A stretch of 64,000 nt of DNA from Callorhinchus milii. Its lineage: Eukaryota. The position numbers were made by a program, and so were the translations under genes. The notes under the pieces are model-generated. The model was not told the DNA's origin. It saw only the letters and a program-made list of their open reading frames with translations, and made no database searches. The stretch spans positions 129,892,001-129,956,000 of the forward strand of contig NW_024704742.1 of assembly GCF_018977255.1 (NCBI RefSeq). Direction: 5' to 3'. Below, one piece after another: positions 2,709 to 63,110 of the stretch. The first letter of the stretch is position 1; every line of letters begins with the position of its first letter.

Positions 2709-3430
2709 AATAATAATAATTCTTACATTTGATAAAGCGCCTGACACAAAGTCTCAAAATGCTTCACAGGATACAGTGTAGCAGTGATTGTGTATTTTGT
2801 TCTGAACATAGCAACCCATTTTCACCCAGAAATGTCCCACAAAACAGCCATGACATGAATGACCAATTTTATCTGGAGGATTGTTGGCCAGGACACTGGA
2901 AGAAACTCCCTTCTCTTTTCAAATAGCGGTGTGGGATCTTAATCGTCCACCTGAACAGACAGATAATAATATTAATAATTTGATGTAGCGCTGTTCACGT
3001 TTTCTAGATGTCTCAAAGCGCTTCACAGAATATACTGTAAAGTGAATTGACTGTATATTTGTGGGCGAAGCGCGGCAGCCAATTGTGCACAACAGTGTCC
3101 CACAGACAGTCGTGGATTGAAATGACCAATTTATTATTGGTTTTTTTTTCTTGAGGGATTATTATCAGGTGTGTGGAGTAAAGAAACTTGCCCAAGGTTT
3201 CACCCTACCAGGAATCAAACCCAGGTCTCTTGTTTGTGAGTCGAGTGCTCTAACCACTGAGCTATGGGACTCCACTTGATTTAGGATGTCAACTCCCAAC
3301 AAACTATCACACCCCCAGCACTGCACTGCAATGTCAGCCTAGACTATGAGTTCCAAGTCCACAAGTGCGGCTTGAACCCATTACCTTCTGACTCAGAGGC
3401 GAAAGTGAGATCAACTGAACCAATTTGACA
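2709..3430 (-). mobile_element. DeuSINE-like SINE split by a younger tRNA-SINE (2964-3273)
   Basis: Host 3' part at 2709-2963 and 5' part at 3275-3430 flank a complete GGAGTCC..TAGCTCAGTGG-headed SINE. Confidence 0.75.
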
Positions 3431-8063: not shown

Positions 8064-8450
8064 TATAATAATAATAATCCTTGCATTTGATATAGTGCCT
8101 TATCACGTCTTCGAGACGTCTCAAAGCACTTCACAGAATATACTGTAAAGTGAATTAACTGTATATTTTGTGGGCGAAACAAGGCAGCCAATTGCACAAA
8201 GCAGTGTCCCATAAACAGTCGTGGATTGAAGTGACCAATTTATTATTATTATTTTCTTTTTGAAGGAATTATCATCCCTGGAAAAGCAATCCGCCAATCA
8301 ACTTATAACCGTGTTCCTACTTACTGCTAGGTAAACAGAGAGAGGCGTGTGGAGTAAGAGAACTTGCCTAACGTTTCGCCCTGCCGGGAACTAAACCCAG
8401 GTCTCTCGCTTGCGAGTCGAGTGCTCTAACCACTGAGCTACAGGACTCCA
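8064..8450 (-). mobile_element. tRNA-derived SINE, long subfamily, near full length
   Basis: Head GGAGTCCTGTAGCTCAGTGGTTAGAGCACTCG and (ATT)n tail. Confidence 0.85.
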
Positions 8451-16405: not shown

Positions 16406-16411
16406 TTTATT
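16406..16411 (-). terminator. Candidate proximal AATAAA for the exon 9d 3' UTR
   Basis: tttatt on the + strand, ~755 nt past the 9d stop. Confidence 0.5.
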
Positions 16412-17165: not shown

Positions 17166-17248
17166 TTATAAATTGTTCAGCTCCGCCAGAGTCTGGTTAA
17201 GCATGTCATGAATGTTCAAGTTTTCTTCTTTAGCTCGGGCCAGTTTCT
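17166..17248 (-). CDS. TPM2: Exon 9d (cytoskeletal/smooth C-terminus): EKLARAKEENLNIHDMLNQTLAELNNL*
   Basis: 83 nt including TAA; acceptor ttccttgaaacaatag; AKEEN...QTL.ELNNL signature. Confidence 0.95.
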
Positions 17249-18399
17249 CTATTGTTTCAAGGAAAGAAATGGGGTGGGGGGGGGGGGGGGGGAGAGAAAA
17301 ACAAAAAGAACAAAGTCACATTTTAAACAGTCTTCTCAGCTGTTCACAAGACAAAAAACAGTAATAAGCACCATTCTGCTATACGGTTAATATACACAAA
17401 TTGCACAAAGAAATAACAGCAGGCGATTTGTTGCTAAGTAACAATTGTCCATTTACTTTGTTACCAAAGAAATTTACTTTGTTGGCAAAGAATATAAGTC
17501 AACATCTGTTACAACTATCATCATGATCGCATGGATTTGAAGACCTTTGTTTCAGCAACATTCTCCTCACAGCCGTAAAACACTTGATAGGTAATGGATA
17601 TCAAGAACCGGTACCCATTTGTAACTACTGTCCAACCCTCTCTTTCCCGGCTTAATGCACTGACCGAGACACACAAACCAGAAAAGCTTCAGCTGAATTC
17701 CCAGCCAGAGCTAACCAGCAGACTTGGTTGGATCTCCCACCTGGTGGTTGTTTCTCATATCAGTGCAGGGTGACAGTGTGGATTCAACCCAGCTCCACAG
17801 TCAGCTCACCATCCCATTACTGGTTGCCAACAGGGGACCCACATTACTCAGGTGCTTGCACTTTACTTCTGCAGGCTTTTGAGGCTATTTTTTAAAAAAA
17901 TAACACTGGGCTTTGAAATATATTTATATTTTTAAAAAATCAAAAAGCTCATTTAATAAAGATTTTGCAGTGTCAGAATTTTAGTGGAACCCTTTCTCTT
18001 TTCCAATAATTCCAAATTAATACAGAACAGAAGAACTTGTTAGCTTTTTGAGAACCACATTTAACACCCACAGAAGGTACAGAGATGATCCTGCCTCAAA
18101 ACAGTAGCTACTTTAATTTACTCCACATTTTATCTACATTTGTTTCGGTGAGAATATTCTTACTTTGGCTCAAGAGACAGAACGACAGAATGAAAAATTA
18201 TAACCCGCTGTTAAGTCGGCAACTCTTTAAATATCTGCAGATTATCTTTTTTTNAAATATTTACAAAACTAGACATGCAAAATAATGCTATGAATAGTTT
18301 CGAAAGGAAAGGAAGAAAAGTCGGAACAACATTCCTTGAAATTAAGAGCCAGGCAAGACCTGTAGAGTTGGCTCTTTGGAAAGTCCAAGGTAAAGCAAG

Positions 18400-18479
18400 T
18401 CAGTTGTTAAGTTCATTCAGGACAACCCTCAGCTCATTATTGAGCAGGCGGTTTCGGTCCACCTCCTGATGGAAGCGTC
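18400..18479 (-). CDS. TPM2: Exon 9c (brain-type C-terminus): GRFHQEVDRNRLLNNELRVVLNELNN*
   Basis: 80 nt including TGA; acceptor gtgtctatag, GACTAAC branch motif at 18531-18537 followed by a pyrimidine tract. In frame with exon 8, lies between 9a and 9d, and the RNRLL.NEL motif resembles TPM1/TPM3 9c. Confidence 0.88.
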
Positions 18480-21311
18480 CTATAGACACAGCAGCATCAG
18501 TGACAGCAGAGTGAAAGAAGAGAGAGCAGTGTTAGTCATATGTAAAAGGTCAGCTTGGAATACGCAGTACAGAAAAAGACACAGAAGGGAAAGTGCATCT
18601 CGGATGCAAAGAGCAGAATTTTAAGTGAGCGATTCTATTACAGAGAAGGTTTCAGTCTTGAATCTAACATGACTCCACACTCGAGATCGGCTGGCAGTGC
18701 AGTAGCATCTGGCCCGGTTTCTGAATCGCAAAGGGTTAAGTGCGGAGGCTTGTCTTAATGTGTGTGGTGGAGGGGGAAGTGGGGGGAGGAGGAAAGAAAG
18801 AGGATAAATAATGAAAGGAGTCAATCCAGCCAACCAATTTTAATTTAGCCAACCAACCCAGATGACAAAAGCAGACCATTCTTCTCAACGGAGGGCTGAA
18901 ATTATGTTGGTGTTTCACGTTGCAATTTTGGCAATGAACGATTAGAATGGGGTGGAGGGAGAGGAGAGAAATCCAATTGGTGGCCAACATGACTACACCA
19001 ATCAGAATTTCAGCCCACAGGTCACAGAGTCTTATCCCGCCCCTGTATTCTCATACAGAAAAACACACTCAGGACATAGACTTGCCAGATGGAAACAGCG
19101 ACATCCTCTCATGTTAATCCAACTCGCCACACTCAGAAATAGCACCTCTTTCAGCAGTACAAACCAATAGGCTAAGTAAACTGGCCATTACTAACTAAAT
19201 CACTCATTAATCTTCAACTAAACATGTTCCCAATCTACAATTGGCCTCAGTACCCTGGGATGGGAGCTGGTGGATGAACGACAATGGGTCAAGAGTTCTT
19301 GCTCCCAATCACTATCCAGCAACATATGACGGACGAAGCAAGGAATAGTCTTAAATGTGAAGCAAATGGAATATAGGAACAGGAATAGGCCATTCAGGCC
19401 ATCAAGCCTGTTTCGCCATTCTACTAGATCATCAATGCACTACACTTCCTGCAAACAGGGATCAACCATCGATGCTGCCCAGCCCAGGAACACTGAGAAC
19501 AATCTGCGCGTGGCAGCTAAAATATTTTTTAAATACAATTATGCAAACTGAGCAGGAATAGCAAGCCAAGCCACTAATTAAAGTAAGGTGAGTAACTAAA
19601 GAATAGCAAGTAATTAAAGAATAGCCAGTAAAGTATTGCAAGGAAGAACTGCCACTGAGATTTATCCCATTAAGCTTCCAGGACTTCAAAAGCACTCGTC
19701 ACAAAGTCAGGTATACCATTACAAACCTGGGCAGCTCATTGAACAAAACATGGGATTCTGTACAAGTTTCTCCCGCCCCCTCGCTACCTAGCAGTATGTT
19801 TAAGCTTTGACTATTTCCATGTGTTATAATGGGACAGCTTGTAATAGTTATAGAACACTGTTTGCTATATTACAGTAATGCTACTTTGGGCTGGAGTTTT
19901 GAAAACATGGCCTTTTTAAAGCTAGTTCTGAGATACACAATTGATAAGATTGTTCAGCTTTCAGCAACCAGGTGCCCAACACCACAAGATTGAAACAGGC
20001 CAAATATCCTACCATAACCCCGGTGCACCTGTTCCCCTTCACTTTTGAGACTGGACAATTCTGTCATGGTCAACAAACAATGGCCATAATTGGACCATAG
20101 CAGCAAATCAACCAGTGGAACCATCAAGCAAATTCTATCCAGCTAGAATTGAGATAAACCATAAATTGAAATGCTGACATAAATGTATCTTTTGTAATTA
20201 ATACGGAATGCAAAAGCATCTTCAACTCTAATGGAAAGCAAAGTAAACTTAAAAGTTGAGATTTTCATTGCAAAATAACATTCAACAATAAAATGTGTCG
20301 CAAAACCATATGAATTCAAGAAGAGCTTAAACAAAGAGAGAAAATGAGGCAAAATAAAGAGGAACTGAGTTTTATTTCATAAATGAAGATACAAGACAAA
20401 GGATGGAAACAGCAAAAAGAACAGAATGAAATTAAACTCAAACTCTACTGAAGCATAAAACATGTGGCGACTTTAAGGCAATGGTACAAGGTGCAGCATT
20501 AATGCAATAAGACCCAGCTTGCTTTAGTCAAGAAGCTGCAGAAAGTAACATAGATTTCTACCAAAGTTCATGCAGTCATTTACTATTCTGTCATGCCCCA
20601 CATTTCATTCTTTCCACTGACTAGCGTTACGTGTGGGTGTATTATCAGCCTGGCAAACTCAATGTACATCAGTGCTGATGCCTGCTGCAAGTCTTGAGGT
20701 GGAGGTTTTTTTTAAAAAAAGCCTCTTTTACCCGTTGCGTAGTAGAGGTGCTCTCCCACTTCTACAAAAAGCCCTTACAGAGGGAGGTAATTTATAATAA
20801 CCCGGATCCTCCAGTTTGTGAGGCAAACGCGCTAACCACTACGCAACGGGACTTTACGATTATTATTATTATTATTATAATAATAGACATGGGAAGTGGA
20901 GCAAGATGAATTAACCATAATGTTAGAGATTTGAATGGACTCCTGTCACAAATATACTGTTCAATTGCCGCACAACCATTAGGCGAATCAAGAATGTATG
21001 AGCACCATTTAGGTCCAATTATAATACTGCGCATTGTACCACAGCACTTTGGCCACTTTAAAATCAGCAAGGGAGAGATCAGCGAGAGAAAAGTCTATCT
21101 GGTCAGAGATCATTCTGTGTAAAGTTTCTCCAAGGCTAAGGAAAGAAAAACATACGAACAAACAAAGCTTGCAGAAGTTACTGATAAAGTTGAAGAATAA
21201 AACAAAATTGTTTTTCCTTTTTTTTAAATAAACAACTTGCATAAAATTGTTTCTTGAATCAACTGCAGCTTTGAAAGTTACAGTTTTGACTTTAATAACC
21301 ACCTTTTTCTA

Positions 21312-21317
21312 TTTATT
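21312..21317 (-). terminator. Candidate AATAAA for transcripts ending in the 9a/9b region
   Basis: tttatt on the + strand ~630 nt past the 9a stop; ATTAAA nearby at 21291-21296. Confidence 0.5.
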
Positions 21318-21943
21318 ACACATGTAAAACAATTCCTAAGTAGTGCCTTTTTGAAGCCTTATGGCACTGTGTAACTTGCTGTGAGGGGGTGGGGAAGGGA
21401 AGAAAGAGATGAAAGACAGAGAAATTACAACCTCAGATTTTATAAATATTGATACAGATCCAAGCTTTCCTTTCCCCTCCTTTTTCCAGATTTTTTTAAA
21501 AACCCAAACCATAATATTGAAGAGATTGTCCCGATCAATTTTTTTTTGCAAATTACAGAAACTTAATAATTCTGGAGATTGGGGCTAAATGGACAAACTG
21601 CTGAACTCAGGACAGTTCATTCAGCATTCAATCTTAAGAAATGAATGAACGTCAGCCATTAAGAGCTTAATTTAAACAAGTCACCGCAACCCCCATCCAA
21701 ACTCTTTGAAGCACAAAACAGCAAATTGATACACAAAAAAGGAGAGCTTAAGACCTGAAGCAGTACTCGAACCAGATTTCCTGGAATTATGACCTTTCTG
21801 CCCGATGCCATAATTGAATTGTTTAAAATGAGCAAAGATATAACTAAGGGAAATGCAGAAAGCTGAGGGGGGGGGGGGGGGATTGAGGGAGGCAAAGATG
21901 GCCCTTTAAGCACGCTGGTGAATTGTATCTTATACAGGGTGGT

Positions 21944-22026
21944 TTACATTGATGTGATATCATTGAGGGCATTGTCTAGCTCTTCACAGATTCCCTTGCA
22001 CTTCATTTTCTGAGTGTACACTTCAT
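21944..22026 (-). CDS. TPM2: Exon 9a (striated C-terminus): [27 protein letters not shown]
   Basis: 83 nt including TAA; acceptor ctccgctag; in frame with exon 8; resembles TPM2 9a [27 protein letters not shown]. Confidence 0.94.
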
Positions 22027-25010: not shown

Positions 25011-25080
25011 CTTCCAAATCATCAATCGTCTTCTCCAGTTTCGCTACAGATCTTTCAGCAAACTCAGCTCTGGTTTCAGC
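25011..25080 (-). CDS. TPM2: Exon 8: [23 protein letters not shown]
   Basis: 70 nt (canonical); acceptor cgtttacag, donor AAG|gtaata, phase 1. Confidence 0.97.
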
Positions 25081-25536: not shown

Positions 25537-25599
25537 CTCTTTTAGTTTTTCTGCTAACAGCTTGATTTCTTCTTCATATTTGTCTTCTTTTACAGAGTA
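25537..25599 (-). CDS. TPM2: Exon 7: YSVKEDKYEEEIKLLAEKLKE
   Basis: 63 nt (canonical); acceptor ctcactggcag, donor GAG|gtgaga. Confidence 0.97.
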
Positions 25600-25939: not shown

Positions 25940-28730
25940 TAACAACAACAAAATTAAATTTATAGAGTGCCTTTCACTTCGGGAGGACACCCCAAGGCAC
26001 TAGACAGTCAGGGGTCAGGACCCGAGCATGGGGGAGGGGTGGAATAGGGGTGAGGGAAGGCAGAGAGGTGGGAGGGAGACCGAAGGCACGATCGAAGAGG
26101 AGGGTCTTGAGACCAGCCTTGAAGGAGGCAAGGGAGGAAGCGAGGTGAACAGACTGTGAGATGGAGCTCCAGAGTGTGGGGGCAGACAGGTTGAAAGAAC
26201 AGCCACCGATGGTAGGGCGGGAGACATGGAGCAGGCCAGAGCTCGCTGAACGGAGGGAGCAGGCAGGTTGGTAGGGAGTCAGCAGATCAGAAAGGTAGGA
26301 GGGGGCAAGGCCATGGATGTCCTTGAAAGTGAGGACAAGGATCTTGAACTCGATCCTCTGGAGGATAGGGAGCCAATGGAGTCGGGTGAGGGTGGGAGTG
26401 ATGGGGTCGCGGAGCCTGGTGCGTAAGAGTACACGAGCTGCAGAGTTTTGGATGATCTGCAGCTTGTGAAGGGAAGAGTTGGGAAAGTTGATGAGGAGGG
26501 AGTTTCCATAATCGAGCCTTGATGCGATGAATGCGTGGGTGAGGGTTTCGGCAGCCTGAGGGGTGAGGCAGTGGCAGAGTCTGGCAATGTTGCGGACAGT
26601 TCAGGGTCAAACAAGATACCCAGGTTCCTGACTGGCTTAGTGAGGTTGAGTGTGCAGCCGTGGAGGCTGATGCTGCCAGCGCCTGAGGTGCAAAGGCACT
26701 CGCCCGAGCCAATCAGGAGGGCCTCGGTCTTGCTGATATTGAGTTTGAGAAAGTTGGCCCTCGCCCAGGACTTGATGTCGGACAGGCAGTCGGCCAGGAC
26801 GCCAGTAGTCCTGGAGTTGAGGGTGGAGGCAGAAAGGTAGAGGTGGGTGTCATCCGCATACATGTAAAATTTATCCCATGTCTGCGGATGATGTCACCAA
26901 GGGGGAGCACGTAGAGGGTGAAAAGGAGGGGACCGAGGACTGAGCCCTGAGGAACACCGCACAAGATGGTGTGGGGGTTGGAGGAGAAGCTGTTTGCCGC
27001 GACAAAGTGGAGGCGGTGTGAAAGGTAGAACCTGAACCAGTCAAGGACAGAACCTTGAAAGTTGCGGTGGGAGGAGGCGGTGGAGGAGGATTGAGTGGTC
27101 CACAGTATCAAAGGCGGCAGAGAGGTTGAGGAGGACGAGGAGGCAGAGGGAGCCCTGGATACACATGGTCAGGATGTCATTTGTGACCTTGACCAGAGCA
27201 GTTTTCGTGCTATGGGCAGCACGGAAACCTGATTGGAGGGGCTCATGGAGGGAGTGAGAGGAGAGGAAAGAGTGAAGCTGGGAGGCAATGGCTCTCTCAA
27301 GGACCTTGGACAGAAAAGGGAGTTGGAGATGGGCCGGTAGCTGGATAGCTGTGTTGGATCAAGGGAAGGTTTCTTCAAGAGGGGGGGGGGTGGGGGGAGA
27401 TAATGGCTGTTTTGAAAAGGGTAGGAACAGTGCCAGATGATCGGGAAAGGTTGATGATGTCGGCGAGTAGTGGAGCAAGGAGATGGAGCTGGGATTTAAG
27501 GAGAGGGGTGGGGACAGGGTCCAGGGAGCAGGTGGTGAGCTTCATGGAGGATATGGTGGTGATGACAAAGGAGGGGGTGGCAGGTTCACAGGTGTGGAAG
27601 GAAGGATGGGTTGTGGTCAGAGAGTGGGTGGGGCTGGGAGGGAGTAGAAGTTTGGAGGGCAGTGGCAGCTGAGAGGATTCTCTCGATTTTGGATTCGAGG
27701 AAGTCCAGCATTTCCTCACAGTGGGAGACAGAGGAAAGAATCTGCAAGGTGCGGCGGGGAGGGCTGGAGGAGCCGGTTGGTGGGGGAGAACAGGAGTCTG
27801 GCGTTGCCCTTCACCTTCAGGATTAACCTGGAGTAGAAGGACGATTTGGCCGAGACGAGAGCGGAGCGGTAGGTTTTGATGAGGTCCAGCCGGACCGTTA
27901 GGCCGGATTTGAGCCAAGTGCATTTAACAGCCCACACCTGGCCCTTGAGCAAGCAGAGGTGGCTGGTGAACCAGGGTGAGGATCCTGAATAGGAGGCATT
28001 TCGGGAGGTGAGGGCGGCAAGGGCATTGAGCGTGGTGGAGAGGGTGCTGTGGAGGAGAGTAAACACAGAGGATGGCTTGGTGCAGGAGGTGGGCCAGACG
28101 GGGAGGAGTTCAGAGGACTCCAGGGCAGCGGAGAGGGATTGCTGGGAGATCTTCTTCCACGGGTGGTAGAAGATGGTGGTAGGTTTGGAGGCAGTGAGGA
28201 GATGGATATAGGAGTTGAGGGAGATGAAATGGTGGTCAGAGGTGGCCTTGTCCAGTGATGGTGACATCCGAGACACTGAGGCCCCCGTGAACCTGGGTAG
28301 CAGAGTGATTGTGGAGGGAGAGGTTGAGGGAGGAGGAGAGAGGAGAAGTCTGAGGAAGTGGAGCAAGAGGGAGTGAAGTGGAGGTTGAAGTTGCCTAGGA
28401 TGATGAGGCGGTTGGAGCAGAGGCAGAGGGAAGCTAGAAAGGTGGAGATGTCAGAGATGAAGGTGGGGGAAAATTTTGGGGGGCGGTAAATTAGGAGAAT
28501 TTTTAGTGAGAGATGGGAGGGATGGCAGAGGGTAAGGTGTTCAAAAGAGAGGAATGAGCCAGCATTGCAGAGATAGGCTACGGGGAGGGCGGAGAGAGAG
28601 GACAGAGCGGGAGAATTGCAGGGAGGGGGGCATTTTGAGGGAGGGCCAGCTTGGGTCAAGGGCGGCAGCCAAGATGCGCACGTTAAGACGAGAGGCGGCG
28701 GATTAGTGGGACATTGTCAGCCTGCAGGAG
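25940..28730 (-). mobile_element. Decayed L2-clade LINE, most of ORF2 (endonuclease + reverse transcriptase), frameshifted; in intron 6b-7
   Basis: APE motifs (LLIYRPPK, GNFNLH, SDHH), RT motifs ([22 protein letters not shown] at ~26850-26860), (GTT)n tail at 25940-25950. Confidence 0.92.
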
Positions 28731-28868
28731 GCTGTGAGGGCTAGAGGTGAAAGGTGAACATGTAGGTAAAGGGTGGAGGTGGTGGGGGGGGAAGATGATC
28801 ATAAAGTGAAAAAAAACTCTTCCACCCCCCAAAAAAAATAGATAATCCCAACAAATTGCCAGATTTGT

Positions 28869-29192
28869 GGAGTCCTGTAGCTCAGTGGTTAGAGCACTCG
28901 CTTTGCAAGTGAGAGACCTAAGTTCAATTCCAGGCAGGGCGAAACCTTGGGCAAGTTTCCTTACTCCACACAGAGCCTAATAATAATCCCTCCAAAACCA
29001 AAAACAATAATAAATTGGTCATTTTTAATCTACGACTGTTTGTGGGACATTGCTGTGCGCAATTGGCTGCCGCGTTTGCCCACAAATATACAGTCAATTC
29101 ACTTTACAGTGTGTTCTGTGAAGCGCTTTGGGATGTCCTCCTGACATGAAAAGCGTTATATCAAATACAAGGATTATTATTATTTATTATTA
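28869..29192 (+). mobile_element. tRNA-derived SINE, short subfamily, full length
   Basis: A box TAGCTCAGTGG, B box GTTCAATTC, L2-type tail, (ATT)n. Confidence 0.88.
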
Positions 29193-29942: not shown

Positions 29943-30018
29943 CTTTTCAGCCTGGGCTTCCAAAGACTTCAGGTTGTTGGTGACATTTTTCAATTCTTCC
30001 TCAAAGTCAGCGCACTTA
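29943..30018 (-). CDS. TPM2: Mutually exclusive exon 6b (striated type, contains Cys190): [25 protein letters not shown]
   Basis: 76 nt; acceptor cttctgtacag after a long pyrimidine tract, donor AAG|gtagga. Confidence 0.96.
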
Positions 30019-30595: not shown

Positions 30596-30671
30596 CTCTT
30601 CCTCTGAGGCCATTAGCGATTTCAAGGTCTGGTCCATTATTCTAAGCTCCTCTTCCAATTGTCGTGCCCGA
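30596..30671 (-). CDS. TPM2: Mutually exclusive exon 6a (non-muscle/smooth type): RARQLEEELRIMDQTLKSLMASEEE
   Basis: 76 nt; acceptor actaactcag, donor GAG|gtactg; closely matches recalled TPM2 6a (RARQLEEELRTMDQALKSLMASEEE). Confidence 0.95.
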
Positions 30672-33031: not shown

Positions 33032-33102
33032 ACTTCTGACACCTCTGCACGATCCTCAGCTCGCTCCAGATCAGCTTCCAGAATGACCAGCTTACGCGCT
33101 AC
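33032..33102 (-). CDS. TPM2: Exon 5: VARKLVILEADLERAEDRAEVSE(V)
   Basis: 71 nt (canonical); acceptor ctcttacag, donor GT|gtaagt. Confidence 0.97.
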
Positions 33103-33323: not shown

Positions 33324-33441
33324 CTCTTCATATTTGCGGTCTGCTTCCTCAGCGATGTGTTTGGCCTCCTTCAGTTGCAGCTCTTGTAATTCCATCTTCT
33401 CTTCATCGCTGCGGGATCGGCTTTCAATAACCTTTATTCCT
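33324..33441 (-). CDS. TPM2: Exon 4: (R)[39 protein letters not shown]
   Basis: 118 nt (canonical); acceptor ttccttctgcag, donor GAG|gtgacc. Confidence 0.97.
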
Positions 33442-34118: not shown

Positions 34119-34385
<267 letters not shown>

Positions 34386-36679
34386 TCACAAGGTGGCCAA
34401 TTGCACCTGAGCGGTAACACAACCTGCCCTGCCACCAACACAGTAGGTCAGCACTGACATCCTGTCGGCTGCTGTTGTTAATGTCAAGGGTATTAATAAA
34501 GAGGTACTTCCCAACAAAAAAAACTTCTCTGTCTCCCCGTAATCTCTTTCTTCTTTATTTGAAGAGGGCCGCAGGCTAACACCTGTCCGACAAACTGGCA
34601 GATTGAACATCGGCTTTGCTCATTTCTGTCGAAGGACGGCACCTTCAGCAATGCAGCTTCCCCCCAGCACTGCACTGGACTGTCAGCCTACACTAACCAT
34701 GACGTTTCAACCTGGGTCTTGAAACCCAGAATTTTCTGATCCCAAAAGGGAAACTTGCTTACCAAGTGACACACTTCCCATTTTTGAAAAAAAANTTACA
34801 TTGCGCAAAATGAATTTTGTTCTAAAAGCTTTTTAAAAAAACCTTTCTAGTTCCACTAACGTTACACGTCTAGACTTTTTTTTAAAAAAACGAGCTGCCA
34901 GCAACCGCAAGCAACCTTTCTGATTCTCTCAGAGTGTAGGGCAAAGCTTGGTATTAACCTTGAGCACTTGACTAGGCTAAAAACTTAAGTACACAAGCCA
35001 TGTACAACAATGCAAAGCACGCTAAAGAGATTCAGGTGCAGACAAAATAATGGCTGCTCGGATTCAGAACCTGTCCTATCCCAGCTTCCCCCAGTAGCAC
35101 AACTTCTTCCAATCAGTGTGTTGGGTCCTCCCATTCCCATTCAATGAGAGCTGTTCAGTGTTTCCTTGCACCTCAAGGTGCAAGCGATAAATTCCTGTTG
35201 AAGGAATTCAGTGCTGACAATGTTCAGGCATGAAACAGAAGCAGACATGAGTGTATTGCACAAGCATATTAGAGGACGAACTGACAAAATGCTTTAAAGT
35301 GTTGGTTTACATCAGCAAACAGGCGGACATGGGCGAGGACAGGCTTTCCTTTATAAATGATGCCCCACCACAATCACCCACTCTCTCCCCCTCACAGATA
35401 TGAGGATAAGGCAATAGGAGGCAATTGGGTGCCAGGAAAACTAATCCAGTCGTGTGTGAATGGAGAGAAGAGAAAAGGAGTTCAAAGAAACTCAGTCGGA
35501 GAGAAGAGGTAGAGAATGCAAAAGCATAGAACAACAACATTTCATTTATAGAGCGCCTTTCACATCGGGAGGACGTCCAAAGGTGCTGGACAGTTGGGTC
35601 AGGACCCGAGCAGGTGGGAAATGGTCAGGGTGAGGAGAGAGGAGGGAACGAGGAGGGGGTAGAGAGTCGAGAAACAAACTTACTCCAAGTGAGACACAGT
35701 GAGTGATACAGCACAGAAACCAACTATTCAGCCCAACTAGCGTTTATACTCCACACAAACCTCCGCTCCTCTCACTCCGCTTTCCTATACCGTTCTCCCT
35801 CATGTCTTTACCAAGTTCTCTTCAATTCTATTTGCAATATCTGAGGCTATTTGCTTCAACCAGTGTTCAGCAGGGAGTTCCACAATCCCACCACCCAGTC
35901 ATTCCTCCTGAACTCCCTAATAGATCTATCACTGACTATCTTATATGCATGCCCTCGACTTGCAGACTCACCAAAAAGTGAAAACAGCCCATCAACATCC
36001 ACCTCATCAAATCCTTTCGATGACCTTAAATGCCTTAGTCAACCACCAGTCAGCACAAAGCAGCTGTTATCTGCAAGTTACAGAAATCTAGACGAGAGAG
36101 ACTGCTCGATAAGCCCACAGTCAAATCAATGGTGGTTTCACATAGGTAATGGAGTGGTTTAATTACATGGTAGGATGTTAGCAAGTGCTTTTGATCACGT
36201 TGTAGGATTCAAATTCCAGTCTAGAACTTGCCCACTCCCAGCAATCCCATCCTCAGAGCTTAACACTGTAAGATGCCCATCCAAGCTTTCAAAGATACCA
36301 CCCTGTACAGTGCTAAAAATCTAACAACAAGTTGCATTTATATTTATAAAATCCTTGGCGTGGGGTAGCATCAGGCAAAGCTTGACACCGAGCTGGTGAG
36401 AGAGGTCTTTGAATACGGGCTTTGGACCAGGATTAATGCCCATTTGGCATCCAAGCAAACTACATTGTTTCAATAATCACTTCCTTCATTGTGAAACACA
36501 TCCTTGTACAACACAATGCCCTTTGAGAAACAGTATTGGACAGAATCAGGTTTCTAGAGGTCGTGGATTTCAACAAGATTATAATATTTGCAGTCTGTAG
36601 TAACTTCAATATCAAGCTATTCCGCTGTTGGTTTGGTTCATTAACTACCCAGAGTAAACCCAAAGAGATAGAAATCAGG

Positions 36680-37618
36680 GAGGCTTCCAATCCGGCTTCC
36701 GCGCTGCCCACAGCACGGAAATAGCCCTGGTCAAAGTCACTGATGACATTCTGAACATCTGTGATCAGCGCTCCCTCTGCCTCCTTGTCCTCCTCGACAT
36801 CTCTGCTGCCTTCGACACTGTCGACCACTCCAACCTCATGCACCGCCTCTCCTTACTTAACCGTCGCAGACCTGCCCTTGCCTGGTTCGATTCCTATCCC
36901 TCTCACCGTCTCCACTTTGTTGCCTCTAACAGTTTCTCCTCCAGCCCCCGCACTGTCAAGTCTGGCGTCCCCCAGGGCTCTATGTTTGGCCCTCTTCTCT
37001 ATAATATCTACATGCTCCCCCTTGGTGACATCATCTGCAGACATGGGGTCAACTTCCACATGTATGCGGATGACACTCAATTCTATCTTTCTGCCTCCAA
37101 CCTCAACTCCAGGACCACTGCTGTCCTGACAGACTGCCTGTCGGACATCAATTCTTGGATGAGGGCAAACTTCCAACAGTTGAATGTCAACAAGACTGAG
37201 GCCCTCCTTATGGGCTCACGCCACAACCTTAGCACCTCAGGCTCTGGCAGCATCAACCTCATGGTTGCACACTACAACTCACCAAGCCAGTCAGGAACCC
37301 AGTGTCTTGTTCGATCCTCAACTGTCTTTTCTTCCCCACATCCAAGCCATGACCTGCTCTGCCTTCCCTCACCTCTGTAACGTGTCCTCTCCCGCACCAA
37401 ACTCCGTGACCCCGTCCTCCCCCATTCTCACCCGACTCCATTGGCTCCCTATCCTTCAGAGGATCCAGTTCAAAATCCTGGCCCTCACCTACAAAGCCCT
37501 TAATGGCCTTGTCCCACCCGATCTCTGTGACCTCCTAACCCCCTACCAACCTGCCCGCTCCCTCCATTCAGCCGGGTCCGGCCTGCTCCACGTCCCCCGA
37601 TCCACCCGGCTCTCCTAG
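36680..37618 (+). mobile_element. L2 reverse-transcriptase fragment, antisense to the gene
   Basis: GVPQGSMFGPLLY, YADD and LHWLPI motifs in ORF track 36838..37380 and 37184..37618. Confidence 0.9.
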
Positions 37619-44755: not shown

Positions 44756-47700
44756 ACCAGATCACCAGACCAGCTATCAGTTTAGTCCTATGCCTGTCTT
44801 TCCCCCCTCCCCTTCACCCCATTACCACTTTATAGTTCTCAAATATTTGCTATATTCCAGTAATAAAAAAAGGTATTAGTTCAAGGCAAAGATCTAAAAA
44901 GACCACAAACTTCAGCGAACAGGAAAGAGTTGACAGAGAGAGAGAGAGAGAGAGAGAGAGGTGTGTGAAGAGCAGACATGATACAGCAACCAGAGAGAGA
45001 GCGAGAGAGAGAGACATACACACGTTCCATACATCATAGTGAACACTTTCAGGCATGTTTCACCATTGTAGTCAGAGCAAGTTTTCACAAATGAATTAAG
45101 TTAATGCAAGTTGATTGTCAGACCCTTGTTGACAAACTGGGCAGGTGAGATTCCTAGAGTTCCTCTTTCCTCCACCCACCAAAAAGGCGCTGACTCTTTG
45201 CTACACACATACAGTGAAGCCTGACTGTCTTCCTCCCTTCAAAATGGCAGAGAGAAAACAAATGATAGAGAAGTTCAGACTCCATTTTCATGGGACAAAT
45301 GACCGCATTGAAATCCTAGCCTTTCTTTGGATCTCACACCATGGACAAATAACTCCAGTACAAGGAGGAGAGAGATTCCAATGGGACAAAGTTATCCATG
45401 GGTTCCAGCATCTACTGCTAACACAAAAGCCAAAGAAACGACACAACCCTCAACAGTCACCCCAGGGTTTAAGAGAGGACACAAGGTCAATGCACAACCT
45501 TCGTGTCTTGGGTAAATGCACCGGGCTACCATTGCTGGGAAAAGGCAAGCGATGAGAACAATTAAGACAGGATTTTTTTAAAAAATCTTTCATGTAAGTG
45601 GATTTGATTTTATAAGCAGTTTATGAACACTCCCGACAAGAGAAAGCCATGCTACAGAAGTTTTTTTTCTAAAAAAAAGTAGCGGTAAGTAATTTGTAAC
45701 ACGATAAAGCAATCTAAGCACACACACACACACACACGTTTCTCCCCCTCTCATCTTCCCAGGGGTTGGGTAGGGGGAAGGCAAGAAGGAAGATAAAGGG
45801 GCCGGGGGGAAAAAGTATGGTCGAGAAAGAAATGCCAAACTGTTTCCGCAGAACCCTTCGCAGTGTGAACCTAAATATTTAATCAAGTTAGAGATGAGAT
45901 GACAAGGACAGAGAGACACACCCAGAGCCGTGAGACAATTTTTACGTCAGCTCAACACAGCCATTCAGCAGAAACTGGAAAGTACCCTGAAGCAATGTTC
46001 CAGTTTCATTAACAGCACAAAATGGTGTTATTCTGCATCTTTCAACATTACATCACGGATCACACCTTGCAGAAAAATGCACTCACTGCGCTCTTATTTG
46101 GCGCACACACACTTCCCTACTATCTCTATGAAATTTTAATTAGAAGGTTTAACAAGCTGTCCAATTAGAACGAGGCTGCAGTGTTCTCTCTACACGAGAG
46201 CTCATTACCCATTTCAAAAGACGTGAAGACTGGAGTTTCTATACATGCAAGTTGCTTCTTTTGTAGTGAGGAATTTGCAGCCCTGAAGAGGCTGGATTTC
46301 TTTGGATGGGGGGGTGGGGATGGGAAAAAGCTGCAATTCAACTCAAGCTGCATTCACTATTCCAGACATTACCGTTTCCTTCAGCAGGGCAATAGTGAAT
46401 AACAAACCCTCCATCAAATATAGTGCCTGCAACATATTGAAGCTCCTCAAAGAGTTGCAGAAATAATTGCTGTTAATTGCAGTATCTATTTTAGGCAAAT
46501 ATACAAATGGCGCCTGTCCACAACGTTTATTACTTTAGATTCTCAAGCATTCAGAATTTGCAATTTTTTTAATCCCCATCAAGGGATCAGTCAGTTATGT
46601 AGAGGTTTGGTGCCTAAAATGGTATCAGTTTTCAGACAGTGAGGGATCTTTCCTTTCTCAATAATAATTTTGCTGGTTAATTTAAAAAGATGGTCATAAT
46701 TTCCCAGAGTTCTACAAACCACGACGGTCTCAAGTCCTACAAAGTCTGAGTTAGCTGTTCTCAGCTGGGAATGAACACCACACTTGGTTTTATAGGCCGT
46801 CTACATCTTTTAACTCAATGGCTATGGCTGTTTGTGGGTGGGACATTGCTGTGCACAAATTGGCCTCTGAATCTCACCTGCAAAATACACAACCGCTGAT
46901 CTTTATCTACAGCATGTCATGTTAAACACTTAAGAGACATCCTCCTCCCGCTATGAATGGCGTTCCACCAAAATGTAAGAATTATCTAAAGTTGGATGAA
47001 TGAAGATCTGGAATCTGTACAGTAGCAACTCTGGTTACTAAAGCAACAAGTTAGGCAGTTATTACTGATTAATGGGGTGGGGGTGGGGAGACGAAGGAAG
47101 AGAGAAAAAGGCTAACCAGATCAAGTTGAAAATAAGATTTGCATTAAAGAAATCAGTGAGTTTGGAGCAAGGGTCACACTCAAAACCTTAACTTTGTTTT
47201 TTTTCCCCTTTTGGATGCCAAGGATTTAAAATATTTTCTGCCTTTATTCTATTTAAGAACCTCCACTTGCCTCCGAAGGAGAGCGAAGGCACTCAACTTT
47301 GTACAGCTGTGCTGGGTTGTCACACGTGTGCACACAGATGAGTCCCCACAGCCTGCACACAAGTATACAGGTATACTGTACTCGACCAGCCACGATGCTC
47401 ACCGCAATTTGAGTGTACTCCCTGCACTGGTAGCCATTTAGCCAGCACTGACACTATGCTATCCTATATCCAAGCAACAAGCAAACCACACGTAACCCAA
47501 ACAAATCAGTGTGGAAGACGCTGCAAAAATCCTTCCCCGAACTGGGGAATATAACAGCCCTAAATAGCTGTCCACGTGGCAGTATGAAGTCATACATTCT
47601 AATTGGAACCTGAAACTGCAATGGTGAGCAGCCACTGCCAAACCCAAACCACCAATTTAATAGAAATACCAGAACCACTTATTAAAGTGCGAAACTCTAG

Positions 47701-50700
47701 AAAGGCCCAAAAGAAATAACCGCCGCACACAATTGCTTTATTATTCAGCCCAGGCCGACGACAACAGGAGGCCCGAGGAAAGTGGCCTGCAAAGGCGATT
47801 GCACTCCCATCACAGAAGTTTGAAATTACAACTGAAGAGTCCCTCAACTCGTAGGGTAGGAAAGCCACAGCCACTCCCTGCAGCAGGAGATAAAAGAGAA
47901 GCAGGCTTATCATTGCAGCCCAGCATTTCCTGCCACAACCACACAAGACCATCTGTGTTCAAGCACTTCAAAAACAAGCCACTCAGGCAGATGACTCACT
48001 GCAGCTATTGATTACAGAAGGAGCTGCCATCACTGCAAGGGATGTAATGCAATATAATCATTCTTGAATTCATTTTTTTTGGTCTGCCGGATGTCTGACA
48101 CATGCAGAAAATCACCACCGTGCTTAAGAGTATCCCAACAAACCTGAGAATTCCAAGCATCCCACCTACACATGGAAATCCCAGAGATAAATTGTTGGAA
48201 TGGAATGCGCACTCTCTTCCTGGTGGGACACATCCCACTTACCTAATTCCAGAGAGTATAAGGCACAGGTTGGCAAGAGCCAAGGCGTGGGGAGAGTCGG
48301 GGTACTGCTGGAGTACTGCCATCGAGATATCTAAAGAATTTTGCTAAATTTTTACTGTACAATGCAGTGACTGTATTTTGTAGGGAAATGCAGCAGCCCA
48401 TTAGCAACCAGCAGTGTCTGACAAACAACCACAAGGTGAATAATCCATTTATGTAGGGGATTGTTGGCCAGAACAATTCCCATCTCTTTTCAAACATGCC
48501 ACAGCATCTTTAACATTCACTTTAACAGACAGCCGGAACTTCAATTAAACATCTCATCCAAAGGATAGAACTTCCAATAATGCAGCGTTCACTCCCCCCA
48601 TAATGTATAATACCAGCCCTAAAGATGGCGAAAAAAACCTGGTTACCATGGCAACACTATCTCCACTACCTAGAGTGCCCACACTGGAAGGCCCTTCAAA
48701 GTCAAAGAGACTGCAGCAAAAAGTCAAGTCCTCACATCAACACCACTTCACTAGATAGCAGACCCCTCATTTCCACCGTCACACTAAGCACACTATTCTC
48801 AACGGCAATTACTCCCAACAACACAACCCACTCACCAAGTGGAGAACACTTTAGATTGTACTCCAAAAAGCATCAGGTCTGTCCACAACACCCCCATTGC
48901 TCAGTCATTTAAATCACTGCATTGCACACCTCACCCTTCAATCCTCCACCACCATTTACTGATTGGAAGCCAATTAAGTTGAATGGGTTGTGCTGGGATA
49001 TTTCTCCTCCTCCCCCCCAACATCTTCAATCAGAAAAGCAAGGAGTATGAATACAAGTAGAGGAATGTAAAAGGGAATTAGATAAGCACATGTGGAGGAA
49101 GGGTATAATAGGATATGGGGGTATGAGCAGAGAATTGGGATTCAGACGGTTTCATTGGAAGAACAAACACTGACATGAATAAAACAGGGCTGGTTGGTCT
49201 CCTACGGAGTTTTAGATTCTGCAGAATACATGAAACAGCTCTGCACGAATGCTTGTTCACATGCAATGCCTGATCGACCCCTCAGGTTAATGAATTGCAG
49301 GTTAAAGCTGTCCTACCTCTAAGAACTATAACATTATATACCCTTCATTGTTTGCTTGCACGAATATTCTGAGAAAGAAAAAATATTTGAAAAAGCTGCT
49401 CCCAATTGGGCCAGATTTCACCTTCCACAGCAAGTAAAAGTTCTTGTAAGTCAAGTTAAACCTGTTACAGATAACACTGCTCAGCACGGAGCAGAGGCTT
49501 CTCAGGAAATTGCATTTGGGGTCTCTGGTTTTTGCTGAAATTAGGTTTTCTTCACAAAGACAAGAACTACATCAGGGAAGGCATACGGAAGGAAGAGAGG
49601 GGCTCGAAGGGGTGTGGGGAGAAGGTAGGGTGGTGGGACTTCAGTAATCTTGTTCTGTGAGTTGGTGCAGTCTCGATGGGCCAAATGGCCTCCTTCTGCG
49701 CTGTAGATTTCTACATTTCCATGTTTCTAACCAAATATATGCTATTGACCATTTCCCCCAGTAAATGGGTCCACACATCAAAGCGATTTCAGCCTCCAAA
49801 ACTCAGCCTGTGACTGAGGTCCCTTTCAATGACTATTATTAATAGGCAATTAAAGAGGCTAACTAGACAGGACTGGGGCCGCAAACAAACCTCAGAATAG
49901 CTTCTTCTCAAGTAGCATATTACCAAGTCTGCTTGATTTAAAGAAATGCAATATAGTCTATTTACGGGTGGAAGGTGGAGTGGAAGAGAGAAGGGTAGAG
50001 AGAAAAAAAACATATTGAGAAATATTAAATTAATTTTGAACTAAATAGTTCCGAAGGCAATACATCCAAAACCAGCAGTTACTCCACAGTTTCAACAGGA
50101 TTTCCAAAAAATAAGATAGAAACAGAAACGGAAGGAAATATCTTTGTGGAGTCAGAACTCACTCCACAATGATATGGGTCATCAGATTTGTCTGGCAATG
50201 CAACAGAGGATTGACAGCACTCTTGAGAATAAACACTGGTAACAATATCTCAGCCACAAAGTGCTAACACCTCCCTACTCTAGAACAAAAGTATCTAAGA
50301 TGTTACTGGTTCTATTACTTCACAATTAGAATTATAGGGAGCAGTAGAAATTCTTTCCCACAAATATAACGCCCTAGGAATGAAGGTATGTGCTCGTTCT
50401 AATAAGCATGCATATAATTCATTCCAAAATATGTACCTACTTTATTGCTAATTATTTAATCATCCGAGCATTTGAATGCCAACAAAAACTGCTCTATTTC
50501 CACACTGCACATCAAACTAGCAGAAACAAATCTTGGTGGATTTCTTGGTGGATTGAGGAAGAGTTCCAAAACTTCGGGGCATAGCGGCTGAAAGTGCAGC
50601 CACTGATGGTGGAGAGGGACGAGGTAAAAGCAGAAGGCCAGAGACTGGCAAAGCACCAGCCTCCAATGCCCCTTTCATAGTGCAACTTTGCGTTATTCAA

Positions 50701-53167
50701 TGCTACAACTGCAGTACAATCGATTTTGAGCCTCACATCAATAACTGCTGACTGCCGGATCCACTGCAGCAGATTCAAACCTATTTCAACATTAAGACAA
50801 CCAGATGCTCTTCTTGGTCCTGAAAAACAGTCGGCATGCATTCAGCTATCTGCACACATAGAGTGATTCGGAACAAGGTACATAAACCCAACTTGCTTAT
50901 CTACCAGAGACAAATCATAATCATCTTCCAATTTGGTAAAACGCATTTTACATCAGGAGGATGTCTCAAGGCACTTCACAGGATTTACTGTAAAGTGTAG
51001 TCACTATATTTGTAGGTAAACACAGCGGCCCATTTGCACACAGGAACGCCCCACAAACCACCATGAAATTACCAGTTTTACAGATTCAGTAATATCAAAG
51101 GCCCAAAATACATTGTACACAGCTCCTCCGATCGGCCAGTGAGCAGACATTGACCAAGTGCAGCAATACATCTCATGGAGACAGAAGGTTAAGGGCTCAA
51201 TTCGCAGTATGCATCAAATTAACTCTCAGCTGAGGTGTTACAATTGGTGTTGGAGCATCTAAATTGGGAGTGAGAAGGAATAGCTAGGGTTCTCACCAGC
51301 AATATATCAGTGTTAGGGAAGGAGTGGTAGGGATTATACTTTTAACCCATTAGGCCTTTATCATGCAGGATCAATAGGAGCCACAGTGCTCCCACTCACT
51401 GGTCTCTCTCTCCAAATCCTGACAACAAACCAGGCTGATTGGTTTATTATCAGGGTGCCTTGGACTACTGCTGACCCATCTGACTCAGGAACTGGATTAT
51501 CGAGGGCTGACTTGATCCTGGAACATTCCGTTGCTGGTCACGTCACCATGGAACCAGCTCAGCCCAAAGATCACCCTTTCCTCCTCCACCATCTATGGAG
51601 GAAAGGAGCGCTCACTCACCCCGATTTTGCAAGAAGAACTACAAAGGAATTTAAACTATTTTCTATGGCTCACTTCAGAGATGTGAAAGAGGCACCCCCT
51701 CCTTTCTTTCTGTTTCTGGCAATCAAATATAGCATTTTCCTACTAGCCAGGCTGATCTCGGCAGTCAGACAGCTTTCTATAATTATTAACCAAGCCACAC
51801 ATTCCTTACCCAGGCAGACAGGAAACCTAGCAAAAAAAAGAACCCAAGTCCTCAGGCTCCCATGGCTAAACTGTTTTACACTGAAACATTGAAAAAAATG
51901 GATATAGATCCTAGCATCTCACCTGGCTTAAAAGCTGTTCTGTTCACAATTTTAATATACTCAGGATCCCAGATGGTTTACTAAAGGAGAGGAAAGCGCG
52001 AATGAGCAGCTGTGGCTTCTGAAAACAGAGTCTCCGACCTTCTTACTCCATAACTCACTACCCACTGCTTCAGCTCGACTGGCTCTGGCCTCCTGCTTGT
52101 CCCTCGTGCCCTCCATTCCCCCATTGGTGGCCCCACTTTCAGCCACTACACCCCAAAACTATGGAATACTCTCCCTCAATTCCCGGATTGACCCCCTACC
52201 CTTCCCCATCTTCAGGTCACACCTAAAGATCTTCCTCTTCGACCGTGCTCACCCCCTGCATCGTGCTCCGCCATTGTCAAATGCTCTGGGAGCGTGGAGA
52301 ACGTTACATAAGTGTAAGTTGTTGTTGCAATGGACCTATCAATATTTATAATAATCCTAACATTTGTCACGTTGGGAAAGGACATCTGAAAGCACTTCAT
52401 GGGAATTACTTTAAAGTCTAGTGACAGTGTATTTTGTAGGCAAACTGAGATATTTGGAACTGTCCCACAAACAGCCTCTGAATTTCACTGAAGCAGATGT
52501 TCATTTACATTTGGTGAAATATTTGCGGGGGCACAACTCGATAGCGCAAAAAAAATCAAGTGCTAAAAACATTGATGGCTTCACATCAAACGCCAGTCTA
52601 TAACACCTAGTTGTATTGGCCAAGGGGACAAACTATTGTCCTTCATCCCCAGGAACTGGTTTGTTGCCAGAATACCAATTACCATAGCAACAAGACTCAC
52701 TTCACTAAGTTTGAATTATGCTTTTTAATTGATCACTACCAATGGGACACTGCCTCTTCGAAACAGTGTTCACTTCACAGGCACTGTACATTAAGTAATA
52801 GTCAATTCACTTTACAGTATATTCTGTGACGAGCTTTGAAATGTCTCAACCATGCGATAAGGCACTATATCAAACGCAAGGACTATTATTATGGTTCCCT
52901 TACTGGTCACTATTCAGACACCCCTGCTGGAAAGTGTGTTTATTTGGAGCAATGACTGGATTGGTTTCTGTGCAGTAATCCCAACCCATTTGCAGACCCT
53001 AAGAGGTGCTTCAACTCCTGGCACATGAAAGGCATCTACAGGCTCTTGCAACGTTAAGCCAGTGGAAACCTTCAATCCCTTAGGGCTAAACAAACCAAAC
53101 TTGAGGTACAGCAGAACACAGCCTCATATTTAAACAAACTGCTTGCAACAGACTGGGAGATATATAG

Positions 53168-53450
53168 CAACAAGAACAACGTTACATTTGTATAGCACCT
53201 TTCAAGTTGGGAGGACGTTCCAAGGCACTGGACAGTCAAAGAGTTTCGGACCCGAGCTGGGGGTTGGGATTGGGGAGGGTGGAAGGTGGTGGGGGGGGGG
53301 AAGGGAAGCAGGGAGACTGAAAGCACGGTTGAAGAGAGGTCTTAAGATGAGTTTTGAAGGTGGCAAGGGAGGGGGCAAGGCAGAGGGACTGGGGGATGGA
53401 GTTCCAGATGGTGGGGGCAAAGTGGCAGAAGGCCCATCTGTGAGAGTGGC
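53168..53450 (-). mobile_element. L2 3' tail fragment
   Basis: Same tail sequence as the copies at 805, 9775 and 25940. Confidence 0.8.
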
Positions 53451-56242
53451 AGAATGCCCACCCTCCTTTAATAGTGGGGCAGACCTAAAAGATGGGACAT
53501 AAATTGACACATACTCTGTATCTACTTGGTCAAATAAATGCCACAGACCCAGATGAATGTCAATAATAAAAATCTACATGACATTCCAATTAAAACACCA
53601 CATTAGCCAAGAGCCACAGCACCAAAGGGTGTCTCCAAACTCCTTTAATAGTGGGACAGACAGTAACTGCGGCTACAACCTAGTCTTTTGGTCTCTATTG
53701 GGTTCATTTCCGACAATCTAAACACCCAAAGCAGTTATTTCTTTCTCTGCCAAGTACTGAAAACCCACCAGAAAGGCGCGTTTCATTGAAGATGGATTTT
53801 ACGGAATGATGCAGTTCAGTGGCAAATGGAAGCCAATTTCCTTTTTGTAAAGTTGGCAGCTGTGCTGGCGATAAAGGAATACAGCATAAACCTCAGAAAT
53901 TCAATGACGGAAGAAAAAAAATCAGAAGGTCAGTGACTAGAACCAACCTCAGAAAATAGCTTGCTTTGGCAAGGATTTTAGTTTTGTGAATGATTTTGTA
54001 AATCCTGCTTCACAATACTTTCGGTTGAAGTCCATTCTTGTGACAAATGACTCGCACAGACTTATGACTTGGGTGCTCCACCATCGGCGGTCAAGTTTTC
54101 AAGCGCAATTTCTGCCCCCGCTGTCTGGAACTTCAAGTCACCCCTTTCCTTGCTTCCTTCAACGTCCACTTCAAGACCTTCCTCTTTGACCTCGCTTTCA
54201 GATACTTTCCCCCTCACCTCAACTGCAAACCTAGACTGTCCAGTGCCTTAAGAAGTCCTCCCAATGTGAAATCTGTTATACAAATATACAAACACCTTTC
54301 ACCTTGGAAGAATGTCCCAAAAATGCTTCACAAGATTAACCCCAAAGATAGTGCCTATTTTGTAGGCGAACACAGCACCCAACAGCCATTGCACACAATG
54401 TCCCACAAACAGTCATGAAGGGAATGGGTAATTTTATCTAGGGGATTTTTGGGCAGAACACCAGGAGAAAGTTGGGTCAATCAAGCCCTACATCTGGACT
54501 CGAACTCAGAGCCCAAAGCTAAGAGTGCAGGACTCAGCTCATACCACACTGTCAAGACTGACCATATTTGGATCAAACGAGTCTCTCTGGTGGGGTCATT
54601 ACTGTAATTTTAGTTTTAGTGTTTAGAAACGTGGACAATGAAGTCAGCGGGTGAACCTGATGGCATCAATAAACCAAGGCCCTCCCTGCCTGTACAGGTG
54701 GATGTTTAAACGTTTAAACATAGCGCTGTTTGAAATGAAAAGGATTGTGTTCCAGTCAACAATTCTTTTTATAAATTGGTCGATGACTTTATGGCTGTTT
54801 GTGTGACTTGGTACATTCTGTTAAGATTAGCTATGATCTAATAGAATGTCGGAACAGGCTCGTAGGGCTGAATGGCCTATTCCTATTCCTATGCAGTGCA
54901 CAAAATGGCAGCTACATTTGCATATAAATTCAAATTTCTACACTTGACAGCAATTCCCTGTGAAGCACCTTGAGATGCTTCAGTGTTAAGTGCTACATCA
55001 AATAAAAGCCAGAAAGATGCAGCTTTTTTGGTGGGAGTTGGGGGGGAGGGAGGGGGAGTCTGAAACATACAGAAACCCACTGTTATGCTTAAAGGTATAT
55101 ATCCAGAGTTTCACATATCCATGCCACTAATGCATAGAAATTATCTGCAAATTAATGCATGCTCTGCCCAGAGGTCTGCCCTGTAGTCCCAGAAAGTATT
55201 AAGTGCAAATTGGTACAGTGAAGGATCCCAGACTTTGTGTTGGGGCGCTGCTGGAGCTAAACCAGCTAAAACTGCATAGCTTACCATTGAGAACATTGCC
55301 TGCCCAGCTAGGACCATCATCAGAACCTTGACTTGCTTGGTTAACATGACAGGGAACACATTAGATTAAAAGAGGCAACAATGGATAGTTTCCTGGCTTG
55401 TCAGCGCTGGGCTCTGATCCATGAAATAAAACGTATACCTCTATTTTATAATGAAAGCAATGGGAATTGAATTTACCCTAAAACTAGAGAGAGGCATCTG
55501 TCTGTCAGTCAATCAGTGACTGAAACGCACAAGGGGGAGAGAAGCTATAGCCAGCTGCATTGATAGAACCACAGTTGGCAAGCACGACCTCCTCCACTTA
55601 AACAGAGTATTCTCTGGCTGTTTTATGGTGAGCCAGAAGAACTCTGTGCTTCCTCAACTTCACTCTGGAAGCACAAATTCTTTTCTGGCACTCTTAACTC
55701 TTTCAATCTTATCCCCTGCTACGCAGTTCTACTTCAGAGAACCACGCTCAAAACACAGCGTGGGTTGAAACCACTCCGGAACAGGTCTATCAGTGATTGC
55801 ATCTCCAGAGAAACTAGTGAGCCCAGTCTGAGGTCTCCACAAGAAAACCCTGGACCTGATCATTTGTGCCTCATGATGACACAAGCAAGTACAGTACTTT
55901 ATGGAGCTTGCCAGCTATTAGTTTTCACATTACTGTCTCCATCGCATCTGAACAGAAGTCAATTAAGTCAACTGATACAAAGTAAGAGACTGTTGCACTG
56001 TAACTGATTCAGGCTTCCTATACTAATTCTCATTCTGTCTCTTAAACCTGTCCCTTCAGCTCACTGAGGTTACACTGTCCACAAACACATGTAATCAAAA
56101 TGCTATTGGGTGCTCGATGGGAGCATTAAACGCCAAGATAAAACACAATGGACTGAATGCCTCTCACCACACTGTTCTCACTAAAGCTAACTGGCCCCTT
56201 TCCCCAATTCAAAATGCACCTTTAATCTTACAAACAGGGTAA

Positions 56243-62966: not shown

Positions 62967-63110
62967 TCTCTCTCTCGCCTGTCGCTCCTCATCCAACTCC
63001 CTCTGCAGATGCTCGGCTTTCTCCTCGGCATCGTCCGCCTGCTGCTGCAGAGCCTGGATCTTCCTCTTCACCCCCTCGATCGAGGAGCCCGACACGTTTC
63101 TTTGTTCCAT
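62967..63110 (-). CDS. TPM2: Exon 1b (short-isoform first exon): [48 protein letters not shown]
   Basis: 144 nt, 48 codons. ATG in gaaATGG context, in-frame upstream TAA at 63144-63146, phase-0 donor AGA|gtgagg. [13 protein letters not shown] is the 1b signature. Confidence 0.93.

Follow-up and report, generated by a model that had tools for sequence, protein, structure and literature searches.

An intact 9c-type last exon in a probable TPM2 gene of the cartilaginous fish Callorhinchus milii

The window, the whole stretch of 64,000 nt of Callorhinchus milii DNA that was analysed (contig NW_024704742.1), contains one identifiable gene, a tropomyosin gene on the minus strand. Its short-isoform first exon 1b is located at 62967..63110 (-) and encodes 48 aa. 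It is followed on the same strand by exons 3 (34219..34352), 4 (33324..33441), 5 (33032..33102), 6a (30596..30671), 6b (29943..30018), 7 (25537..25599) and 8 (25011..25080), and all internal exons listed have AG/GT ends. Exons 1a and 2 would be placed past the right end of the window. The phase-1 donor of exon 8 is available to three last exons, which are all in phase 1, compete with one another and have separate poly(A) hexamers: 9a of the striated-muscle type (21944..22026, -), 9c (coding part 18400..18479, -) and 9d (coding part 17166..17248, -, with an AATAAA at 16411).

The ORF list and the scans covered positions 47001-57999. No neighbouring gene was found within the window, where none of 25 open frames outside the exons matched Pfam; TPM2 is flanked by TLN1 and CA9 in human. 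Decayed LINE retroelements are present in the introns at 25980-28740 (-), 36658-37618 (+) and 59428-60000 (-), and a LINE frame matches Pfam RVT_1 with an E-value of 7.7e-23. Four Rfam tRNA matches (3200-3271, 8376-8447, 28871-28942 and 57802-57864) have flanking repeat sequence in common and are most likely the heads of a tRNA-derived SINE, not tRNA genes. Retroelements and tRNA-SINEs of this kind are in keeping with the genome of a cartilaginous fish. A long low-complexity, C-rich tract is found after exon 1b at about 62920-62290.

Exon 9a contains a possible internal donor, AT/GTAAAC, after 79 nt, which is the length of the internal 9a of TPM3. A possible 9b-like terminal exon was placed at 21291..21378 (-). 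Its acceptor at 21378 is 565 nt past the 9a stop codon, with no AATAAA or ATTAAA in between; this acceptor is strong, with a pyrimidine fraction of 0.89, and AATAAA and ATTAAA are found at 21317 and 21296, respectively. Splicing from 9a to the candidate exon would add 14 residues in place of the stop, and direct splicing from exon 8 would give a 6-residue tail.

In a first-pass annotation of this DNA, an 80-nt terminal coding exon in phase 1 had been proposed between 9a and 9d, together with its 26-residue peptide, a GACTAAC branch motif with a pyrimidine tract and two candidate ATTAAA signals; all of these were recovered. The exon is located at 18479-18400 (-) and consists of 77 coding nt plus a TGA that ends at 18400, and the exon, when joined to the final G of exon 8 (position 25011), reproduces the 26 residues, counting the junction codon. 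The 3' splice site (18480..18555, -) reads tctatag/GAC at 18480/18479 and comprises the branch motif at 18537-18531, a pyrimidine tract (pyrimidine fraction of 0.70 at -40 to -3) and a TAG acceptor. The branch A is about 53 nt 5' of the exon, which is more distant than usual, yet it is still within the AG-free zone of 72 nt; CACTGAT at 18502 is another candidate branch point. In the predicted 3' UTR (17952..18399, -) the signals are found at 18117-18112 and 17957-17952, i.e. 282 and 442 nt past the stop codon, and both are of the weaker form ATTAAA. The acceptor had also been called UGC-rich. Three TGC triplets are indeed present in its final 40 nt, compared to 0-1 at 11 other exon starts examined; since 4.5% of the 40-nt windows in the interval from exon 8 to 9d also contain three, the cluster is a weak feature. 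The UGC cluster and the single TGCATG of the predicted UTR (at 18279) are both near chance level. Inverted repeats near the exon were limited to short A/T-rich pairs, which were judged to be chance.

The peptide was compared with the other last exons of the gene and with published 9c sequences. All AG-anchored phase-1 frames open for at least 24 codons on the gene's strand between 62966 and 16000 were ranked by how closely they resemble 9a and 9d of this gene. Among these 920 frames, 9c ranked third, directly after 9a and 9d themselves, with a z-score of 5.2 against 873 background frames; of 20,000 shuffles of the peptide, 0.025% equalled its score. Against the TPM3 9c immunogen (PMC5743921 Table 1, excerpt), 11 of 24 residues were identical; a match of this size has an expected count of 1.8e-5 for the 443 AG sites from exon 8 to 9d. 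The GC content by codon position is 0.69/0.19/0.65 versus 0.34-0.46 in the flanks and is thus coding-like.

Identities to human exons were counted by eye (sequences from the PMC8373072 supplement, excerpt). The fish peptide is identical to human TPM3 9c at 11 of 26 residues and to human TPM1 9c at 10 of 24, and shares just 4 and 7 residues with the 9a and 9d of its own gene. Human TPM3 9c (Tpm3.4 and Tpm3.7; ENST00000368531) likewise lies between 9a and 9d and agrees with the fish exon in phase (1), coding length (77 nt, 26 residues), heptad register and an RNRLL-x-NEL core. It differs from the fish exon at 15 of 26 residues, starts with an acidic residue where the fish exon starts with Gly, and is not located in a TPM2-type gene. 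Human TPM1 9c (Tpm1.10/TMBr-1 and Tpm1.12/TMBr-3) agrees in position, phase, core Asn and Leu positions, whereas the fish exon is two residues longer and resides in a different paralogue. The coiled-coil register runs on from exon 8, with F, N, L and L at the a positions and E, L and V at the d positions, and the a-position Asn is common to both human 9c exons; most differences from these are conservative (D/E, R/K, V/L). The two human exons share 14 of 24 residues with each other, which is above the share of either with the fish exon; this is expected when the fish exon is a third paralogue's copy or has changed faster. Judged by its sequence, the 80-nt exon is a true 9c homologue with respect to position, phase, length (24-26 residues), register and a likeness to 9c above that to 9a or 9d.

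Database searches with the peptide used a query of 26-30 aa, and for such a short query a blank is weak evidence. A homologue search gave one candidate, which did not score, and no match was obtained among 1.84 billion representative sequences, in the PDB or in Pfam. The best scores in the ESM Atlas, 0.78 and 0.76, are leads only. A degenerate 9c motif matched two metagenome contigs (L001 and L002), both of prokaryote-like DNA, and these matches were judged to be chance. An orthologous 9c from another species was thus not found by the peptide and metagenome-motif searches. Of 12 sequencing runs listed for 17930-18500, nine contain this interval wholly or in part, and none of them is recorded as RNA; the share covered is 1.00, 0.94, 0.90, 0.50 and 0.36 in five runs guessed to be RNA, 0.00 in three others of that guess and 0.86-0.92 in four unlabelled runs, values that count neither for nor against expression of 9c.

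We favour, with moderate confidence, the explanation that the gene, likely TPM2, carries an intact 9c whose splicing has likely persisted, probably for the most part in neurons, and which as an alternative last exon would exchange the final 26 residues of the protein. The exon 8 donor at 25011 would choose among 9a, 9c and 9d. Use of the 9c acceptor at 18479, with cleavage after the ATTAAA at 18117 or 17957, would leave 9d absent from the message. Together with 1b this would give a short isoform of 251 aa (1b+3+4+5+6+7+8+9c), the size announced in the first-pass annotation, and with exons 1a and 2 from upstream of the window a long form. The new tail would supply the C-terminal side of the head-to-tail overlap. 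Repression outside neurons might be exerted by PTB- or QKI-type proteins, whose motif preferences are met by the UC-rich tract and the overlapping ACTAAC at the distant branch point, although this step is speculative. The 9c isoforms of mammals are specific to the brain (PMC5743921; PMC10629095, excerpts). For Tpm1.12, a weak head-to-tail contact is reported, and a very low actin affinity is attributed to 9c in some studies, while it was normal in one (PMC8152229, excerpt). By analogy with this mammalian isoform, the fish product may be a looser-bound tropomyosin for dynamic neuronal actin. Deletion of TPM3 9c is not lethal in mice (PMC3843815, excerpt).

Two alternatives accept TPM2 as the host but differ in how the exon would be used. 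According to the first, 9c is used non-neurally, as a minor last exon or as that of another tissue. We consider this unlikely: neural use is indeed borrowed from mammalian TPM1 and TPM3, and the divergence of the fish exon is greater than that between the two human 9c exons, but both mammalian 9c exons are of the brain type, and by parsimony neural use is ancestral for at least that branch. According to the second, the exon is a recently silenced relic, intact yet unspliced, following the course of mammalian TPM2. A precedent is human TPM4, which retains a little-used 9a (PMC4426136), and the presence of ATTAAA signals only as well as the identity of 42% to human 9c fit this idea. Such a relic appears improbable, as the exon has neither a stop codon nor an indel, has the exact length of the TPM3 type and differs mostly conservatively, and its base composition is coding-like and its splice signals are intact although the lineages have been separate for several hundred million years.

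The host gene is, with considerable confidence, TPM2, based on exons 6a, 9a and 7 and on chromosome-scale synteny that is unverified. For this assignment, the human exons were again compared by eye with the sequences of the PMC8373072 supplement (excerpt), and counts for TPM4 were obtained by script from mammalian TPM4 only. Exon 6a is identical to human TPM2 (beta-tropomyosin; Tpm2.1-2.4) at 23 of 25 residues, to TPM1 at 18 and to TPM3 at 13. For exon 9a, the values are 22/27 for TPM2, 18/26 for TPM1, 18/27 for TPM3 and 17/27 for TPM4 (lemur), and at all four 9a positions where human TPM2 departs from TPM1, TPM3 and TPM4 together the fish gene has the TPM2 residue. Exon 7 matches TPM2 at 19 of 21 residues (TPM1, 16; TPM3, 17; TPM4, 18), and exon 8 is identical to that of human TPM2 (23/23). 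Published TPM2-specific peptides match at 11 of 12 residues for the 6a/7 junction and at 12 of 13 for the 8/9a junction (bioRxiv 2024.11.04.621980, excerpt), and a TPM2-specific peptide of the 9a tail matches at 13 of 16 (PMC10444689, excerpt). The gene had been called TPM2-like in the first-pass annotation, and TPM2 is indeed the most likely assignment. Human TPM2 lacks 1b as well as 9c (PMC4426136), whereas the fish gene carries both; in chicken and zebrafish, TPM2 is known to have a 1b (PMC4426136). Exons 4, 5 and 9d of the fish gene are no nearer to human TPM2 than to TPM1.

The remaining exons leave room for another paralogue. The constitutive exons 3, 4, 5, 7 and 8 (150 aa) show 20, 17, 19 and 18 differences to human TPM1, TPM2 and TPM3 and mammalian TPM4, respectively, and do not separate the paralogues. 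A lineage that evolves slowly and retains ancestral residues would be expected to show such ties. If the gene were TPM1 (or TPM3), 9c would be expected and the exon ordinary. In the PDB, TPM1 chains slightly outscore the TPM2 chain of equal length for all four exons compared: 71.8 versus 68.4 bits for exon 3, 54.1 versus 51.9 for exon 4, 25.2 versus 22.7 for exon 5 and 26.7 versus 25.5 for 6b. Exon 4 carries the TPM1-type Ser at the VIES/VIEN marker (bioRxiv 2024.11.04.621980, excerpt). Exon 9d ties for human TPM1 and TPM2 (19/27 each; TPM4, 17/27; TPM3, 13/27) and is identical to a TPM1 9d in the PDB at 20 of 27 residues, and the best PDB score of 1b is to a TPM3 chain. The possible 79-nt donor of 9a and the 9b-like exon would be retained TPM1/TPM3-like features. 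Nevertheless, TPM1 or TPM3 is very unlikely in view of the numbers for exon 6a, of exon 7, which is closest to TPM2, of the four TPM2-type residues in 9a and of the fish 9c, whose identity to each of the human 9c exons is just about 42%.

Also very unlikely is that the gene is TPM4, the sister of TPM2, which would then have retained 6a, 9a and 9c, exons lost or silenced in mammalian TPM4; exon 5 is nearest to TPM4 (20/23), the constitutive exons differ from it about as little as from TPM2 (18 versus 17 differences), and the chromosome of TPM4 carries MAST3, PIK3R2 and PTBP1, ohnologues of markers of the TPM2 segment (PMC8040251 supplement, excerpt), but 9a and 9d are further from TPM4 than from TPM2 (17/27 in both cases versus 22/27 and 19/27), 6a is nearly that of human TPM2, and mammalian TPM4 isoforms use only 6b (PMC4426136). 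Exon 3 agrees with TPM4 at 40 of 44 residues; like the values for 9a and 9d, this applies to mammalian TPM4, from which a basal TPM4 may differ. The protein search with 1b, in which 37 of 77 candidates matched, gave nearly exclusively mammalian proteins of the TPM4 type, and its cluster look-up was without another paralogue; this outcome is due to exact sequence words in common, and human TPM2, which lacks 1b, could not have appeared. A search with 6a gave 26 candidates, none of which scored. A TPM4 identity would leave unchanged the conclusion drawn below that 9c existed before the first duplication.

Regarding synteny, TPM2 of the gar is located on LG2 at 44.6 Mb, 2.3 Mb from MAST4 (42.2 Mb) and 37 Mb from PTBP3 (7.3 Mb), and all of these correspond to chicken Z, while TPM1, TPM3 and TPM4 are found on chicken 10, 25 and 28 (PMC8040251 supplement, excerpt). 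Since holocephalan chromosomes include fusions (PMC10620051, excerpt), the synteny argument for TPM2 is weakened. In the ((A,B),(C,D)) pairing of Lamb, TPM2 and TPM4 together are sister to TPM3 and TPM1 (PMC8040251, excerpt). With 9c in TPM2, this pairing puts the exon on both sides of the first duplication. If the gene is TPM2, the origin of 9c therefore likely precedes the first genome duplication of vertebrates; the exon would have been ancestral, retained in TPM1, TPM3 and fish TPM2, and lost from mammalian TPM2. A wider account, which we consider evenly balanced, is that a third neuronal tropomyosin, from TPM2, has survived in cartilaginous fishes but was lost in mammals, and that this TPM2 locus retains the full ancestral cassette of 1b, 6a/6b, 9a with its internal donor, 9b, 9c and 9d. 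The neuron-specific tail would then have been present already in the single gene before the first duplication, and would have been pruned afterwards paralogue by paralogue.

The statement of the first-pass annotation that mammalian TPM2 lacks 9c agrees with the literature, since neither mammalian TPM2 nor TPM4 has a listed 9c isoform (PMC4426136 Table 3). The annotation also placed the origin of 9c before the duplications, which is likely correct although not as new as supposed: the C-terminal 9c/9d events of TPM1 and TPM3 are already dated to Chordata in a 2021 catalogue (PMC8373072 supplement sheet 1, excerpt). In the excerpted part of this human catalogue, three 3' exons are given just for TPM1 and TPM3 among the tropomyosins (PMC8373072). 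A 9c of TPM2 was not found in topic and peptide searches of open-licence papers, and RefSeq or Ensembl isoform models of fish may already show the exon. Thus, the old age of 9c is not new; the copy in TPM2 is the new piece. Reviews list 9c just for TPM1 and TPM3, which are second-duplication sisters in Lamb's pairing. If the gene is TPM2, its copy is direct evidence, coming from the other branch, that 9c existed before the first duplication. In that case, mammalian TPM2 would have lost both 1b and 9c. A 9c in TPM2 changes no mechanism. As a third and more divergent natural 9c tail, it marks residues which may be important for the neuronal overlap junction, namely the core Asn, NEL and the Leu positions.

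Several further features were noted. Exon 1b has 48 codons, four more than 1b of human TPM1 and TPM3 (44; PMC8373072 supplement, excerpt). The mammalian proteins P0023 and P0033 combine TPM4 exons 1b-8 with a Rab8-like GTPase and are probably read-through products or fused gene models. Exon 4 reads Arg/Ser-rich SRSRS where the human paralogues have RAQK, RAMK or RALK, which may be a kinase site. In exon 9a, two Cys occupy sites that are Tyr and Ser in human TPM1-3; one of them is at a core a position and might form an inter-chain disulfide.
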